Made by a program: the position numbers and the translations under genes. DNA of 32,000 nt from an archaeon (GTDB lineage: Archaea > Iainarchaeota > Iainarchaeia > Iainarchaeales > 1-14-0-10-31-34): the NCBI GenBank assembly GCA_024277355.1, contig JAJRVL010000005.1:1-32000 (forward strand). The letters are read 5' to 3'. Below are positions 18,563 to 24,299 of the stretch, piece after piece; within the stretch, counting starts at the first letter, position 1; each line of letters begins with the position of its first letter. A model generated the notes under the pieces. The model did no database searches. It worked only from the letters and a program-made list of their open reading frames with translations, and had not been told where the DNA came from.

Positions 18563-19681
18563 CTATTTAAACACTTTTTTGAATTTTTTGAAAAAACCAT
18601 TGTCTTCTTTTTCTTCTTGTTTTATTTCTTCAAACAATTCTTTTTGTTTTCTTGAAAGCTTTTCAGGAGTTCTTACAATTACTTTAATGTATTCATCTCC
18701 AAAACCGCCTCTTTCAATGTCTTTAATTCCTTTTCCTTTTAATCTAAAAATAGTTCCAGTCTGGGTTCCTGCAGGAATCTTTAATTTTCCTTTTTCTTTT
18801 AATGTTGGAATTTCAATTTCTCCTCCTAAAGCTGCAGTTGAAAAATTAATTGGAACTTCTCCATAAATATCTGTCTGGTCTCTTTTGAAAAATTTATGCG
18901 GTTCAATAAAAATAATTACATATAAGTCTCCGTTTCCTGCGCCTCTTTCTCCTGCATTTCCTTCTCCTTGTAATCTTAAATAAGCTCCATTTTGGATTCC
19001 TTCAGGAATTCTTACTTCAATTTTTCTTTTTTTCTTTATTCTTCCTGTTCCATGGCATTTACTGCATGGGTTTTTTACTGTTTTTCCTTCTCCTCCACAT
19101 TTTCTGCAGGTTGTTTTTGTAGTAAAAGTTCCAAAAGGCGTTCTTTGGGCATGAGTCTGCATTCCTGTTCCATTACATTGACTACAGTCAATTAAACCAT
19201 CTTTTTCTTCTGAACCTGTTCCATTGCATTTATCACAGGCTTCAATTCTTTCTATTTCAATTTCTTTTTTTATTCCAAATACTGCTTCTTCAAATCCAAT
19301 ATTTAAATCAAACCTTAAATCAACTCCTTTTCTTGGACCTCTTTTTTTTCCTCTTCCTCCAAAAATATTTCCAAAACCAAAACTTGAAAACAAGTCATCA
19401 AAATCCATATTAGAAAAATCAAATCCTCCTGTTCCTTGTCCTCCAAATCCCTGAAAGCCTTCAGCTGCGTGCCCAAACTGATCATAATTAGATTTTTTTT
19501 GTTCATCGCTTAAAACAGAATAAGCTTCTAATATTTCTTTGAATTTTTCTTCAGCATGTTCTTCTTTAGATATATCTGGATGAAATTTTTTTGCCATTTT
19601 TTTGTAAGCAGATTTAATTTCGTCAGCTGAAGCTCCTTTATTCAACCCTAAAATTTCATAGTAATCTCTTTTTGTGGTCAT
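18563..19681 (-). CDS. dnaJ: Chaperone DnaJ (Hsp40, type I)
   Basis: J domain with KKFHPD, a G/F-rich linker and four CxxCxGxG repeats (CDKCNGTG, CSQCNGTG, CRKCGGEG, CSKCHGTG). Confidence 0.97.
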   Translation of the reverse strand: MTTKRDYYEILGLNKGASADEIKSAYKKMAKKFHPDISKEEHAEEKFKEILEAYSVLSDEQKKSNYDQFGHAAEGFQGFGGQGTGGFDFSNMDFDDLFSSFGFGNIFGGRGKKRGPRKGVDLRFDLNIGFEEAVFGIKKEIEIERIEACDKCNGTGSEEKDGLIDCSQCNGTGMQTHAQRTPFGTFTTKTTCRKCGGEGKTVKNPCSKCHGTGRIKKKRKIEVRIPEGIQNGAYLRLQGEGNAGERGAGNGDLYVIIFIEPHKFFKRDQTDIYGEVPINFSTAALGGEIEIPTLKEKGKLKIPAGTQTGTIFRLKGKGIKDIERGGFGDEYIKVIVRTPEKLSRKQKELFEEIKQEEKEDNGFFKKFKKVFK

Positions 19682-19783: not shown

Positions 19784-21682
19784 TTACTTTTTATCTTCTT
19801 TTTTGTCTTTTTCAACTTTATAGTCTGCGTCAACAACTTTTTCGTCTTTTGATTTATCTTTGTTTTCTGTCTGGTTTGTGCCTGTATTTCCTTGAGTTTC
19901 TGTTTGTCCTTTAGCCTGTTGCTCTTGTGCTGCTTTTTGGTATAATTCAGTTGAAGCTTCCTGAAATAATTTATTTACTTCATCTAATTTTGTTTTGATT
20001 GCTGTAACATCTTTTTGTTCTGGTTCCATTAATTTTTTTAGTTCAGCTGTTTTGTCTTTTATTCCCTGAATTTTTTTTGCATCAACTTTTCCTTCCATTT
20101 CTTTCAAAGTTTTTTCTGTTTGATATACAACTGCGTCTGCCTGGTTTATTATGTCAATTTCTTCTTTTTTCTTTTTGTCTGTTTCAGCAAATTGTTCTGC
20201 TTCTTTTTTCATTTTTTCAATGTCTTCTTCTTTTAATTTTTCTGAAGCAACAATTGAAATTTTCTGGCTTTTTCCTGTTCCCATATCTTTTGCTGTTACA
20301 TGCACTATTCCGTTTGCATCAATATCAAAGGTAACTTCAATTTGAGGTATTCCACGAGGTGCCGGAGGGATTCCAATTAACTGAAATCTTCCTAAAGTTT
20401 TGTTATCTGAAGCCATTGCTCTTTCTCCCTGCAATACATGAATATCAACTGCTGTTTGATTTTCTGCTGCAGTAGAAAAAATCTGGCTTTTTTTTGTTGG
20501 AATAGTTGTATTTCTTTCAATTAATTTAGTAAAAACACTTCCTAAAGTTTCAATTCCTAAACTTAATGGAGTTACATCTAAAAGCAAAATATCTTTTACT
20601 TCTCCTGATAAAACTCCTGCCTGAATTGCTGCACCCATTGCAACACATTCCATTGGGTCAACGCCTCTTTCAACTTTTTTTCCAACAATTTTTTCTACAA
20701 ATTCATGGACTATAGGCATTCTTGTCGGGCCTCCAACTAAAACAACTCTGTGAATGTCATTTGGAGTTAATTTTGCGTCAGCTAAAGCCTGATTAACAGG
20801 CTTTTCACATTTTTCAACAATTGGTTTAACTAATTCTTCAATTTTAGCTCTGTTTAATTTCATTACTAAATGTTTTGGTCCTTCTTTTGTTGCAGTAATA
20901 TAAGGCAGATTAATTTCGGTTTCAATTACATTAGATAATTCAATTTTTGCTTTTTCTGCTGATTCATTTAATCTCTGCAAAGCCATTTTATCTTGAGTTA
21001 AATCTACTCCGTCTGTTTTCTTGAATTCAGCTATAATAAAATCAGTTAACACTTTATCCATGTCTCTTCCGCCTAATTGAGTGTTTCCTGAAGTTGACTT
21101 AACTTCAAATACTCCGTCGCCGAAATCCATTATAGTTACATCTAATGTTCCTCCGCCAAAATCAAAAACCAAAATTTTCTGGTCTTTTTCTTTTTTATCT
21201 AAACCATAAGCTAAGGATGCGGCTGTTGGTTCATTAACTATTCTGATTACATCTAATCCTGCAATTTTTCCTGCGTCTTTTGTTGCCTGTCTTTGATTGT
21301 CATCAAAGTAAGCCGGAACTGTAATCACTGCTTTTTCTACTTTTTCTCCTAAAAAGCTTTCTGCATCTTTTTTTATTTTCTGCAAAATAAAAGCTGAAAT
21401 CTGCTGAGGAGTGTATTCTTTTCCATAAACTTTAAATTTTTCTGTTGTTCCCATTTTTCTTTTTGCACCGGTAATTGTTCCTTCTGGATTGCTTATTGCT
21501 TGTCTTTTTGCTGGTTCTCCAACTAACATTTGCCCGTCTTTAGTAAAAGCTACAATTGAAGGAAATGCTTTTCCATATAAACTTGCTCCTTCAGCTGAAG
21601 AAATTATTTTTGGTTTTCCTCCTTCTAATACTGCTGCTGCAGAATTTGAAGTTCCTAAATCTATTCCGATTATCTTACTCAT
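19784..21682 (-). CDS. dnaK: Chaperone DnaK (Hsp70)
   Basis: [28 protein letters not shown] and a complete substrate-binding domain; 632 aa. GGTGAT lies 4 nt upstream of the ATG. Confidence 0.98.
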
Positions 21683-21696
21683 TTTATCACCTTTTT

Positions 21697-21831
21697 TTAA
21701 TTAGCATAAATTTGCTTTCTTAATCTCTTTTCTTCTTCATTTAAGTTTGGTTTAGCTTTATCTGGGATTTCTTCTGGAAACTCCTCAAAATCTTCTGGGC
21801 CAAATTCTTCATTCAATTTTTTTTCATTCAT
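21697..21831 (-). CDS. Unannotated 44-aa acidic small ORF between grpE and dnaK
   Basis: Hand translation gives [44 protein letters not shown] then TAA. The ATG (21831-21829) lies inside the last codons of grpE. The stop is directly upstream of the dnaK GGTGAT site. It is below the track length cutoff. Confidence 0.45.
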
Positions 21832-22336
21832 TTTTTTCACTCTCTATTGAATTAATTTTAACTTTTGAATGCCTTAACACTTTGTCATTTAACATAAATC
21901 CTTTTTGAAATTCCTCTAAAATAATTTCATCTTGTTTTTCTGAATTATTTTCTTTTAGTAAGCATTCATGGAATTCCGGATTAAATTTTTTTCCAAGTGA
22001 ATTAATTTCTTTTAAACCATATTTTTCTAAAACTTCAGTTAATTGTTTTTTAATTAATTCAAGTCCTTTAATTGTTTCTGGATTCCCGTTTTTTTCAGCA
22101 GAATCAATTGAATCAAGTATTGGAAGCAAGGATTTAATTAATTCAGCATTACTAAATTCAGCAAAATGTTTTCTGTCTTTTTCTTCTCTTTTCTTAAAAT
22201 TTTCAAATTCTGCCTGAATTCTTTTAACTAATTCAGTTAATTCTTCTATTTTAGCTTGTTTTAAGTCTTTATTTGCTGTTTCTTCTTTTTCTTTTCTTTC
22301 TTTTTTTATGTGTTTATGTCCAATCAAATTAATCAC
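21824..22336 (-). CDS. grpE: Nucleotide exchange factor GrpE
   Basis: Coiled-coil N-terminus (LVKRIQAEFENFKKREEKD), LLPILDSIDSA, FNPEFHECL and a C-terminal beta domain ending KVLRHSKVKI. There is no ATG in the first ~140 codons. The start is GTG 22336 or TTG 22327. Confidence 0.9.
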   Translation of the reverse strand: MINLIGHKHIKKERKEKEETANKDLKQAKIEELTELVKRIQAEFENFKKREEKDRKHFAEFSNAELIKSLLPILDSIDSAEKNGNPETIKGLELIKKQLTEVLEKYGLKEINSLGKKFNPEFHECLLKENNSEKQDEIILEEFQKGFMLNDKVLRHSKVKINSIESEKNE

Positions 22337-22389: not shown

Positions 22390-22410
22390 GTTTTGTTGGA
22401 CTTTTATTTT

Positions 22411-22905
22411 ATGGAAGAAAATGAAAGAAAACTAATTGCATTTAATCATAGATTTCAGTTAACAGGAAAAATTCATATTCCTGCTGCTACTAAGCATAGA
22501 TTTCAGGTTATAATAAGAAAAGTTGAACAGCCTTTTTCAACGCAAGCAGATGAAGAATTTAATTGGTTGTTAGAGTGTTTAGGCTTTTTTGAGCCTATAG
22601 ATAAAGGAAAAACAGCTGCTTTAGTGTTTAAGGAATTAGTTAAAGCCACTGAGAGTGGAAGATTATTAACTTCAACTGAATTAGCTGAAAGAGTCGGTAT
22701 GAGCAGAGGAGCAGTAATTAATCATTTAAATAATCTTCAAAGATCTGGCCTTGTATTAAAGGAAGGAAGCAGATATATGTCCAGAAGCAAGTCAATGTTT
22801 CGCATGATTAAAGAATTACAGGATGAAATTAATTTAGTTTTTAAAAGAATGGAACAAACTGCAAAGGAATTAGACCAAGAAATGGGCTTGTTTTTAAAGG
22901 ATTAA
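22411..22905 (+). CDS. Winged-helix (ArsR/TrmB-like) transcriptional regulator, divergent from grpE-dnaK-dnaJ
   Basis: The HTH segment LTSTELAERVGMSRGAVINHLNNLQRSGLVLKEG is followed by a helical tail. The track starts at TTG 22393. I prefer ATG 22411 (MEENERK...). Confidence 0.6.
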   Translation: MEENERKLIAFNHRFQLTGKIHIPAATKHRFQVIIRKVEQPFSTQADEEFNWLLECLGFFEPIDKGKTAALVFKELVKATESGRLLTSTELAERVGMSRGAVINHLNNLQRSGLVLKEGSRYMSRSKSMFRMIKELQDEINLVFKRMEQTAKELDQEMGLFLKD

Positions 22906-24299
22906 ACTCTTTTAAATTTTGACTGAAAATGCCTTAAGATTGGACTTTCAAATTCAAATTTTAATCCTTTGATTTTGTCTTTTCTTTCCTTTATGTTTTT
23001 CATTGCTTCAATAATATAATCCATATGTTCTTTCAGATAAACTCTTCTTGGAATAGTCAACCTCATTAAATCCATTTCAGGCATTTTATCTTTTCCTGTT
23101 TTTGGATCTCTTCCAGCTAATAATGTTCCTATTTCTACTGCTCTAATTCCTGCTTCAATATAAAGTTCAGTGCAAAGTGTATGTGAAGGAAATTGTTCTT
23201 GCGGAATATGAGCCAAAAATTTTTTGCCGTCAACAAAAACTGCATGACCTCCAATTGGTTTCATTATTGGAATTCCAATTTTATTTAATTCTTCTCCTAA
23301 ATATTTAACTTGTCCAATTCTGTATTTTAAATAGTCTTCTTGTATTCCTTCTTTTAATCCAACTGCAATTGCTTCTAAATCTCTTCCGGCTAATCCTCCA
23401 TAAGTTGGAAAACCTTCAAATAAAATTCCAAAAGGAATGCTTTTTTCATAAAGTTCTTTTTCTTTAAATGCAATTAATCCGCCAATATTAACTATTGCAT
23501 CTTTTTTTGCGCTCATTGTGCATCCATCAGCATAAGAAAACATTTCTAAAACAATTTCTGAAATTGATTTATTTTCAAAACCTTTTTCTCTTTGTTTAAT
23601 GAAAAAAGCATTTTCTGCAAATCTTGCTGCATCAATAAAAAAATAAACTTCAAACTTTTTGCATAACTCGCTTGTTTTTTTTATGTTTTCCATTGAAACC
23701 GGCTGGCCTCCTCCGGAATTACAAGTAATTGTATGCAGAACATAACCTATATTTCCTTTATTTTTTTATAAAACTTCTTCTAATTTTTTTAAATCAATAT
23801 TTCCTTTAAATGGAAGTTCTTTTTCACAGTCAAATGCTTCTTTTATTACACAATTAACAGGAATTCCTTTTTTGTGCTCAATATGGGCTGTTGTTGTGTC
23901 AAAATGAATGTTTCCAGGAATTATGTTTCCTTCTTTTATTAAAACTGCATCTAATATGTGTTCTGCTGCTCTTCCCTGATGTACAGGCAGAACAAAATCA
24001 AATCCAATTACATCTTTAACTGAATTTTTAAAGTTATCAAAACTTTTTGCTCCGGCATAACTTTCATCTGCTTTAATCATTGCAGACCATTGCTCCTGAG
24101 ACATTGCATTTGTTCCTGAATCAGTTAATAAATCAATAAAAATTTCATTTGATTTAAGCAAAAAAATATTTAAGCCTGCTTTTTCTATTGCTTTAATTCT
24201 TTTTTCTTTTGAAATTAGTTTTATTGGTTCAATGCTTTTAATTTTAAAATTCGGAATAATATAATTCAATTTTTCACAACCCTGCTTTTTTTTAAACAT
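22902..24299 (-). pseudogene. Tryptophanase/tyrosine phenol-lyase family (beta-eliminating lyase) gene interrupted by one in-frame TAA
   Basis: Track ORFs 23766-24299 (N-terminal part: FIDLLTDSGTNAMS, PVHQGRAAE) and 22902-23693 (C-terminal part: DAARFAENAFFIKQRE, PLP-lysine motif MSAKKDA, FPTYGGLAG, LRLTIPRRVY) are in the same frame. The 72 nt between them translate as KNKGNIGYVLHTITCNSGGGQPVS, which is the expected conserved segment. The only defect is TAA at 23766-23768. Confidence 0.85.

Follow-up and report, generated by a model that had tools for sequence, protein, structure and literature searches.

A conserved micro-gene between grpE and dnaK in a genus of Iainarchaeales: a possible small partner of the Hsp70 system

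We analyzed the grpE–dnaK–dnaJ cluster in a 32,000-nucleotide stretch of DNA (contig JAJRVL010000005.1, positions 1–32,000 of the forward strand; hereafter, the window) from an archaeon of the order Iainarchaeales. The source genome measures 1.13 Mb, has a GC content of 28%, and is 96% complete, and the host genus belongs to the DPANN archaea. The genes and features at the locus are as follows.

18563–19681, minus strand: dnaJ, with a J domain, a CXXCXGXG domain, and a C-terminal domain

19784–21682, minus strand: dnaK (Hsp70; E 5e-227), with its ATG at 21682

21686–21691, minus strand: Shine–Dalgarno (SD) sequence GGTGAT of dnaK, five bases past the stop codon of the micro-ORF

21697–21831, minus strand: micro-ORF, the micro-protein gene, 44 codons plus TAA (21699–21697), with its ATG at 21831–21829

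21700–21738, minus strand: part of the micro-ORF for a basic amphipathic C-terminal helix (residues 32–44) ending in Y-A-N, from a 12-sequence alignment and a helix in the AF2 model

21748–21789, minus strand: part of the micro-ORF for an acidic, proline-rich core (residues 15–28), from the same alignment and extended in the AF2 model

21824–22336, minus strand: grpE (Pfam GrpE, E 9e-38), with its stop codon TGA at 21826–21824

21837–21844, minus strand: SD-like site GAGAGTGA of the micro-ORF, followed by five A's and then the ATG, and including a GTG at 21840

22393–22905, plus strand: gene for a winged-helix regulator, divergent from grpE and kept beside grpE throughout the order

The ATG of the micro-ORF falls within the final codons of grpE, in the +1 frame relative to that gene, so that its start overlaps the grpE stop, and this overlap sits in A7 and A8 homopolymer runs. 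At the other end, 5 nt separate the micro-ORF stop from GGTGAT and 14 nt separate it from the ATG of dnaK. Re-reading of the minus strand reproduced the coordinates and the translation given for the 44-codon frame in an earlier note on this DNA. From the upstream GTG at 21840 the frame would comprise 47 codons; because GAGAGTGA stands five bases 5' of the ATG, this GTG is better read as part of a ribosome-binding site than as a start codon. A pattern scan of the grpE–dnaK spacer found no promoter-like or terminator-like site. Because the micro-ORF lies inside the grpE–dnaK–dnaJ cluster without such a signal around it, it is most likely carried on the same heat-shock transcript as these three genes. 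Elsewhere in the window (22902–24299, minus strand), a gene for a beta-eliminating lyase of the tryptophanase type was split into two ORFs, each matching Pfam PF01212.

We then asked how often such a frame would remain open by chance. The stop probability on the A-rich minus strand was 0.091 per codon, corresponding to a P of ~0.011–0.015 for an open frame of 47 or 44 codons, and 99 of 20,000 shuffles of the spacer contained an ORF of 44 aa or more beginning with ATG. For one spacer among ~1000, these figures were suggestive and not decisive. Chance opening of a frame in non-coding DNA between two genes would suit the A-rich, low-complexity sequence and single-sequence P values of only ~0.005–0.015. 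The earlier statement that the frame was unlikely to be accidental proved right, on evidence that came from comparison with relatives rather than from these odds.

A six-frame search recovered homologues of the micro-ORF in four of the five congeneric genomes (E 4e-16 to 1.5e-5; open frames of 38–59 aa), and direct reading of the grpE–dnaK junctions identified it in the fifth, bringing the count to five of five. All congeneric copies were located between grpE and dnaK, differed in length by whole codons, and shared the C-terminus [I/V]-Y-A-N, and the two remaining forward frames were rich in stop codons in every relative. The dN/dS values (Nei–Gojobori) of the four closest pairs were 0.25, 0.14, 0.03, and 0.06, and Fisher tests of synonymous versus non-synonymous differences gave p = 0.05, 2e-4, 3e-9, and 3e-7. 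Variable sites numbered 6, 8, and 21 at codon positions 1, 2, and 3, respectively. The relatives carried their own SD sequences at the same distance (GGTGAT, GGTGAA, GGAGTGAT, or AGGAGAT, 5–6 nt 5' of the ATG), and the stop codon of the micro-ORF differed among copies, being either TAA or TGA.

On this comparative evidence, comprising the open frame, the dN/dS values well below 1, and the codon-position counts, a chance ORF was rejected. The spacer was also considered as an RNA element. Within it, no Rfam covariance model matched at E ≤ 1, the predicted fold was no better than those of shuffles (z = +1.0), and the scan had revealed no terminator or promoter pattern; an RNA element was rejected on these grounds, and we regard a non-coding origin of either kind as scarcely credible. 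The two observations that the earlier note had named beforehand as contrary to a coding sequence, namely, stop codons in this frame in relatives and conservation only at the nucleotide level, were both looked for and neither was found. Because the frame, the whole-codon indels, and the synonymous excess are kept across relatives, we consider the coding status settled, and the comparison of sequences indicates with high confidence that the micro-ORF is a true, separately initiated gene for a 44-residue micro-protein.

The overlap with grpE also admits another origin of the peptide, as the C-terminal tail of GrpE detached by a frameshift in an A run, whether by an assembly error or by programmed +1 frameshifting. 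The micro-ORF is in the frame expected from such an event and crosses the grpE stop within the A7 and A8 runs. In relatives, it was found as a separate cistron 13–140 nt past grpE, with stops in all frames and with its own SD. Moreover, none of ~90 GrpE sequences of the order contained the motif of the micro-protein, in the tail or elsewhere, as an in-frame fusion, and the match to the Pfam GrpE model already extends to position 164 of 165 ahead of the overlap. A frameshifted GrpE tail was therefore rejected as very improbable.

Across relatives, the position of the micro-ORF varied at both ends. Its start fell anywhere between 8 nt ahead of the grpE stop and 140 nt past it, and its end was 14–115 nt from dnaK within the genus, the largest distance being that in contig C46 of genome G002. 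In contig L044, a gene for a 313-aa LAGLIDADG protein was located between the micro-ORF and dnaK, and the micro-ORF was intact across a gap of ~950 nt. The thing conserved is the peptide, not its placement relative to the dnaK start. The micro-ORF had been described as exactly filling the grpE–dnaK gap, which holds for the window but not for the relatives.

Database searches indicated a narrow distribution. A word-indexed search of 5.8 billion proteins returned only the product of the window itself and one ENA protein with 86% identity. A profile search of 1.84 billion representative proteins returned five clusters of 38–48 aa, all ending in [I/V/F]YAN, the sole other match being one unrelated repeat protein. 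Further copies were found on one ENA contig, two 'Candidatus Diapherotrites'/archaeon MAG contigs, and two JGI metagenome contigs; of these, DNA-pattern scans based on a narrower alignment supplied only four loci, two from genomes and two from metagenomes. Within the genome of the window, the strict core motif occurred in this ORF alone. The micro-protein family is rare, nameless, and previously undescribed. The earlier term 'unannotated' was accurate in that the gene has no name, but a large protein collection already listed the identical predicted product, 44 aa long, from this contig.

Several weaker matches were rejected. An ORF resembling small heat-shock proteins on contig C2, which matched the core motif loosely, looks like a coincidence. 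A candidate paralogue in genome G003 (profile match, E 0.002) was an antisense frame within a membrane-protein gene and was attributed to chance. Single-sequence matches outside the genus (E 0.1–2) were weak and corresponded to unrelated genes.

The MAG of G002 contained two grpE/micro-ORF/dnaK junctions, on contigs C28 (L012/L125) and C46 (L003). The two micro-ORFs were ~49% identical and the accompanying dnaK copies slightly different, and this MAG is probably a mix of two related populations.

Next, we examined the peptide product. In the alignment of 12 sequences, P19, I22, Y42, A43, and N44 were invariant, and F15, E21, K27, P28, L37, and R38 were near-invariant, with these residues clustering in the Pro-rich core and at the C-terminal end. 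The acidic, Pro/Phe-containing N-terminal half and the basic C-terminal half noted earlier in the single sequence were thus conserved in the alignment. An AF2 model based on a shallow alignment (pLDDT 82; pTM 0.31) had helices at residues 3–9 and 32–43 and an extended acidic, Pro-rich middle, with L37, I41, and Y42 on one face of the C-terminal helix. The model points to a linear-motif peptide rather than a domain, predicted to be largely disordered and to have no globular fold. Pfam and NCBIfam gave no match to the product, and a PDB sequence search gave nothing meaningful, the matches being to a designed helical bundle that had only a Glu/Lys/Arg-rich helix composition in common with it.

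To place the gene in a broader context, we surveyed the order, in which dnaK was located in 124 of 151 genomes and ~100 grpE–dnaK junctions were read. At most junctions, the two genes overlapped or were separated by a gap of <60 nt. The distribution of the micro-ORF was patchy. The other three genera of the family lacked it, two having a different ORF of 99–120 aa and the third having no gap, as did the large clades f10, f23, f27, and f30, all well supported in the GrpE tree. Given this patchy distribution, the micro-protein is dispensable for Hsp70 function.

Small ORFs in the same slot were found in two further families. All 11 examined loci of family f20 had an ORF of 23–34 aa with its own SD, the core of which was acidic and proline-rich (Pro-x-[D/E]-hydrophobic-Pro-[D/E]-[D/E]-hydrophobic-x-Pro), and three loci of family f8 had similar ORFs. 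These ORFs ended 1–154 nt before dnaK in f20 and as far as 243 nt before it in f8. A combined profile, which contains the genus and the f20/f8 groups by construction, matched five of five congeners and 18 of 23 f20 genomes in a search of all 215 genomes of the phylum, and its matches, set against the mapped dnaK coordinates, were all directly upstream of dnaK except for a few weak chance ones. When a profile built from f20 only was used, the ORF of the window scored −1 bit, a value equalled by 674 of 1000 composition-preserving shuffles, and the forms from G002 and G005 scored 8.6 and 8.1 bits, values that 1 and 0 of 1000 shuffles, respectively, equalled or surpassed. These scores make common descent of the genus and f20 families plausible, and only by way of intermediates. 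The GrpE tree showed no resolution at depth and was compatible with a single origin of the slot ORFs.

At two f8 loci (L033:1938–2212 and L111:683–902), two small ORFs, adjacent or overlapping, took the place of one: the acidic, Pro-rich stretch lay on one of them and the hydrophobic-Ala-Ser ending on the other. The gene is either split there or interrupted by a frameshift.

Beyond the genus, small sense-strand ORFs of the gap frequently ended in a hydrophobic or aromatic residue, Ala, and a small or polar residue. Such endings were found in the 99–120-aa proteins of two sister genera and in families f8, f13, f15, f17, and f32. Ala was the penultimate residue in 11 of 53 small sense gap ORFs outside the genus, as compared with backgrounds of 2.3% for small ORFs of the window's genome and 5.0% at the same loci (binomial P = 4e-8 and 6e-5, respectively), figures to be read with a criterion taken from the genus and with cases that are not all independent. 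Because of this partial non-independence, and because the wider motif was defined after the data had been seen, we treat the shared Ala-X ending as a suggestive lead only.

The slot also housed other genes. In the sister genera, the 99–120-aa ORF (L016:1961–2257 and L017:2042–2401) had a conserved central segment and ended in Y-A-H; it is listed at NCBI as 'hypothetical protein', had no Pfam match, and gave an AF2 pLDDT of 52 for the 120-aa representative P0006. Its last ~18 residues resembled the C-terminal part of the window's micro-protein. Family f23 had a different ORF of 53–62 aa with a strong SD (L101:840–1001 and L117:806–994), unrelated to the gene in the window, and family f32 had an ORF of 119 aa. 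In at least eight of the order's genomes or contigs (L044 [1179–2120], L046, L067, L068, L071, L095, L103, and L110), a free-standing LAGLIDADG-type gene of ~310–330 aa (Pfam LAGLIDADG_3, E 1.5e-15) was located immediately 5' of dnaK, ending at or overlapping the dnaK start. In L044, this gene appeared to use what seems to be the former ribosome-binding site of dnaK. It looks like a mobile gene of the homing-endonuclease type that targets the grpE–dnaK junction.

This variety of occupants, together with the patchy distribution of the micro-ORF, would be expected if the micro-protein were a passenger that is co-expressed on heat shock and has a function unrelated to Hsp70, the gap serving, in reduced genomes, as a permissive site at which small genes settle and come under stress-linked expression. 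Different genes do occupy the same gap in the two sister genera, in f23, and in f32, as does the LAGLIDADG gene, and the slot may merely tolerate passengers. Against this, the gene was found only at this position in the genomes searched and never elsewhere; the weak off-site matches lay in frames too long for this gene, and the one inspected was the antisense frame described above. The gaps of 70–125 nt in clade f10 contained no conserved ORF, and therefore such gaps do not gain ORFs by themselves. Furthermore, if the f20 and f8 ORFs are homologous to the micro-ORF, the association with the slot has held over deep divergence. We give a function unrelated to Hsp70 a fairly low probability.

The proximity to dnaK is also what a cis-acting regulatory upstream ORF (uORF) would require. 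In that case, the micro-ORF would encode an arrest or termination-stalling peptide, or serve as a translational coupler, setting the ribosome starts on dnaK relative to those on grpE, and its conserved residues would act within the ribosome. As in the conserved-peptide uORFs and arrest peptides SecM, MifM, and TnaC, a short ORF is located directly 5' of the gene that would be regulated, and conservation peaks at the extreme C-terminus beside the stop codon. The tight spacing in the window, where the start overlaps the grpE stop and the micro-ORF stop nearly adjoins the dnaK SD, fits this arrangement, as do the richness of the peptides in Pro, Asp, and Glu, the distances to dnaK of mostly <60 nt, and the length of the f20 forms, which at 23–34 aa would be too short to exit the tunnel before termination.

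Other features differ from those of arrest peptides. The spacing to dnaK is unfixed, extending from 14–115 nt in the genus and 1–154 nt in f20 to 243 nt in f8 and ~950 nt in L044, and the spacer has no mRNA structure masking the dnaK SD, its fold being that scored above. Conservation likewise covers residues of the N-terminus and the core, distant from the stop codon; the stop codon itself varies, and dnaK owns a perfect SD. We know of no precedent for control of a chaperone operon by an arrest peptide or uORF. Overall, cis-acting control appears rather unlikely; if it did operate, it would constitute a new kind of translational control for a chaperone gene.

Because the peptide stays intact where the distance to dnaK changes (from 14 to ~950 nt), we prefer action in trans over action in cis. 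Judging from its position in the operon, the micro-protein could be a small Hsp70 ligand or modulator, comparable to DafA or CbpM, a reading that we favor tentatively and hold to be somewhat short of an even chance. The DnaK-binding consensus consists of a hydrophobic core with basic flanks. The tail of the micro-protein, with basic residues, a hydrophobic/aromatic pair, and small residues, appears from its sequence to resemble this consensus and could pass for a DnaK client or pseudo-substrate. The C-terminal segment might then dock on DnaK or a co-chaperone, and the acidic, Pro-rich core would serve to maintain its solubility and might touch a basic surface, for example that of the J domain. 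In this manner, the peptide would cap or tune the idle chaperone until displaced by real substrates. Several arguments run counter to an Hsp70 ligand: the acidic half is opposite to the preference of the peptide cleft of DnaK, the family is patchy and hence dispensable, and other lineages have unrelated small genes or the homing-endonuclease-type gene in the slot.

Short disordered segments with a hydrophobic core are known to occupy the Hsp70 cleft and to control substrate release, as in the N-terminal tail of GrpE and the release domain of Fes1. The composition of the micro-protein tail is similar to that of these pseudo-substrate segments, which are parts of exchange factors, whereas the micro-protein is encoded by a separate cistron and its motif is absent from the ~90 scanned GrpE sequences of the order.

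Bacterial systems provide further precedents. DafA is a protein of ~78 aa, the gene for which follows dnaJ rather than being located between grpE and dnaK. In Thermus thermophilus, DafA binds DnaK and DnaJ in a DnaK3–DnaJ3–DafA3 complex and is expelled by substrate (PMC3727329). Like DafA, which is lineage-restricted and has no other known role, the micro-protein is a small protein encoded in the Hsp70 gene cluster; it differs in being archaeal and in being known here from gene position and sequence. CbpM is a folded protein of ~100 aa with links to the MerR family. In Escherichia coli, it binds reversibly to the J domain of the DnaJ homologue CbpA, thereby inhibiting CbpA (PMC4063869). The likeness lies in small size and in the co-transcription of CbpM with a co-chaperone gene; by contrast, the micro-ORF product has no Pfam or NCBIfam match, a pTM of 0.31, and no compact fold, and hence falls outside the CbpM family. 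The assertion of the earlier note that no such gene was known was overstated, because DafA (PMC3727329) and CbpM (PMC4063869) are encoded with Hsp70-system genes and because other small genes occupy the same gap in related archaea.

Purifying selection keeps this micro-gene in a 1.1-Mb genome from which most accessory genes have been lost. Archaea acquired the Hsp70 system from bacteria, and little is understood of how they control it. Genes of so small a size regularly go unnoticed or unnamed, and those whose context permits a test are few. Binding to DnaK, DnaJ, or GrpE, if it occurs, would make the peptide a natural 44-residue Hsp70 modulator that could be easily synthesized and studied with recombinant chaperones, and binding in trans would extend the idea of operon-encoded chaperone modulators, as in DafA and CbpM, to archaea. 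In these archaea, the grpE–dnaK junction is a recurrent home of micro-genes. A far-reaching reading, which we regard as improbable, would unite the gene of the window, the f20/f8 ORFs, and the slot ORFs ending in hydrophobic-Ala-X in one ancient, fast-evolving, junction-bound family of the Iainarchaeota/Diapherotrites. Its members would then form a novel class of Hsp70 cofactor in archaea, acting either as a pseudo-substrate 'plug' in trans or as the first peptide whose translation reports chaperone status.

Finally, we examined genes neighboring the junction. At 64 loci with or without the micro-ORF, the presence of the winged-helix regulator showed no correlation with that of the micro-ORF, and an association between the two was ruled out, the presence of the regulator being independent. 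This protein of ~170 aa has a conserved N-terminal segment, divergently adjoins grpE throughout the order, and is likely the heat-shock regulator of the locus. Some GrpE proteins of clade f10 (L081, L093, and L098) had long, low-complexity C-terminal tails ending in a V-D-Y-K-V-like motif, which resembles the conserved C-terminal motif of DnaK.
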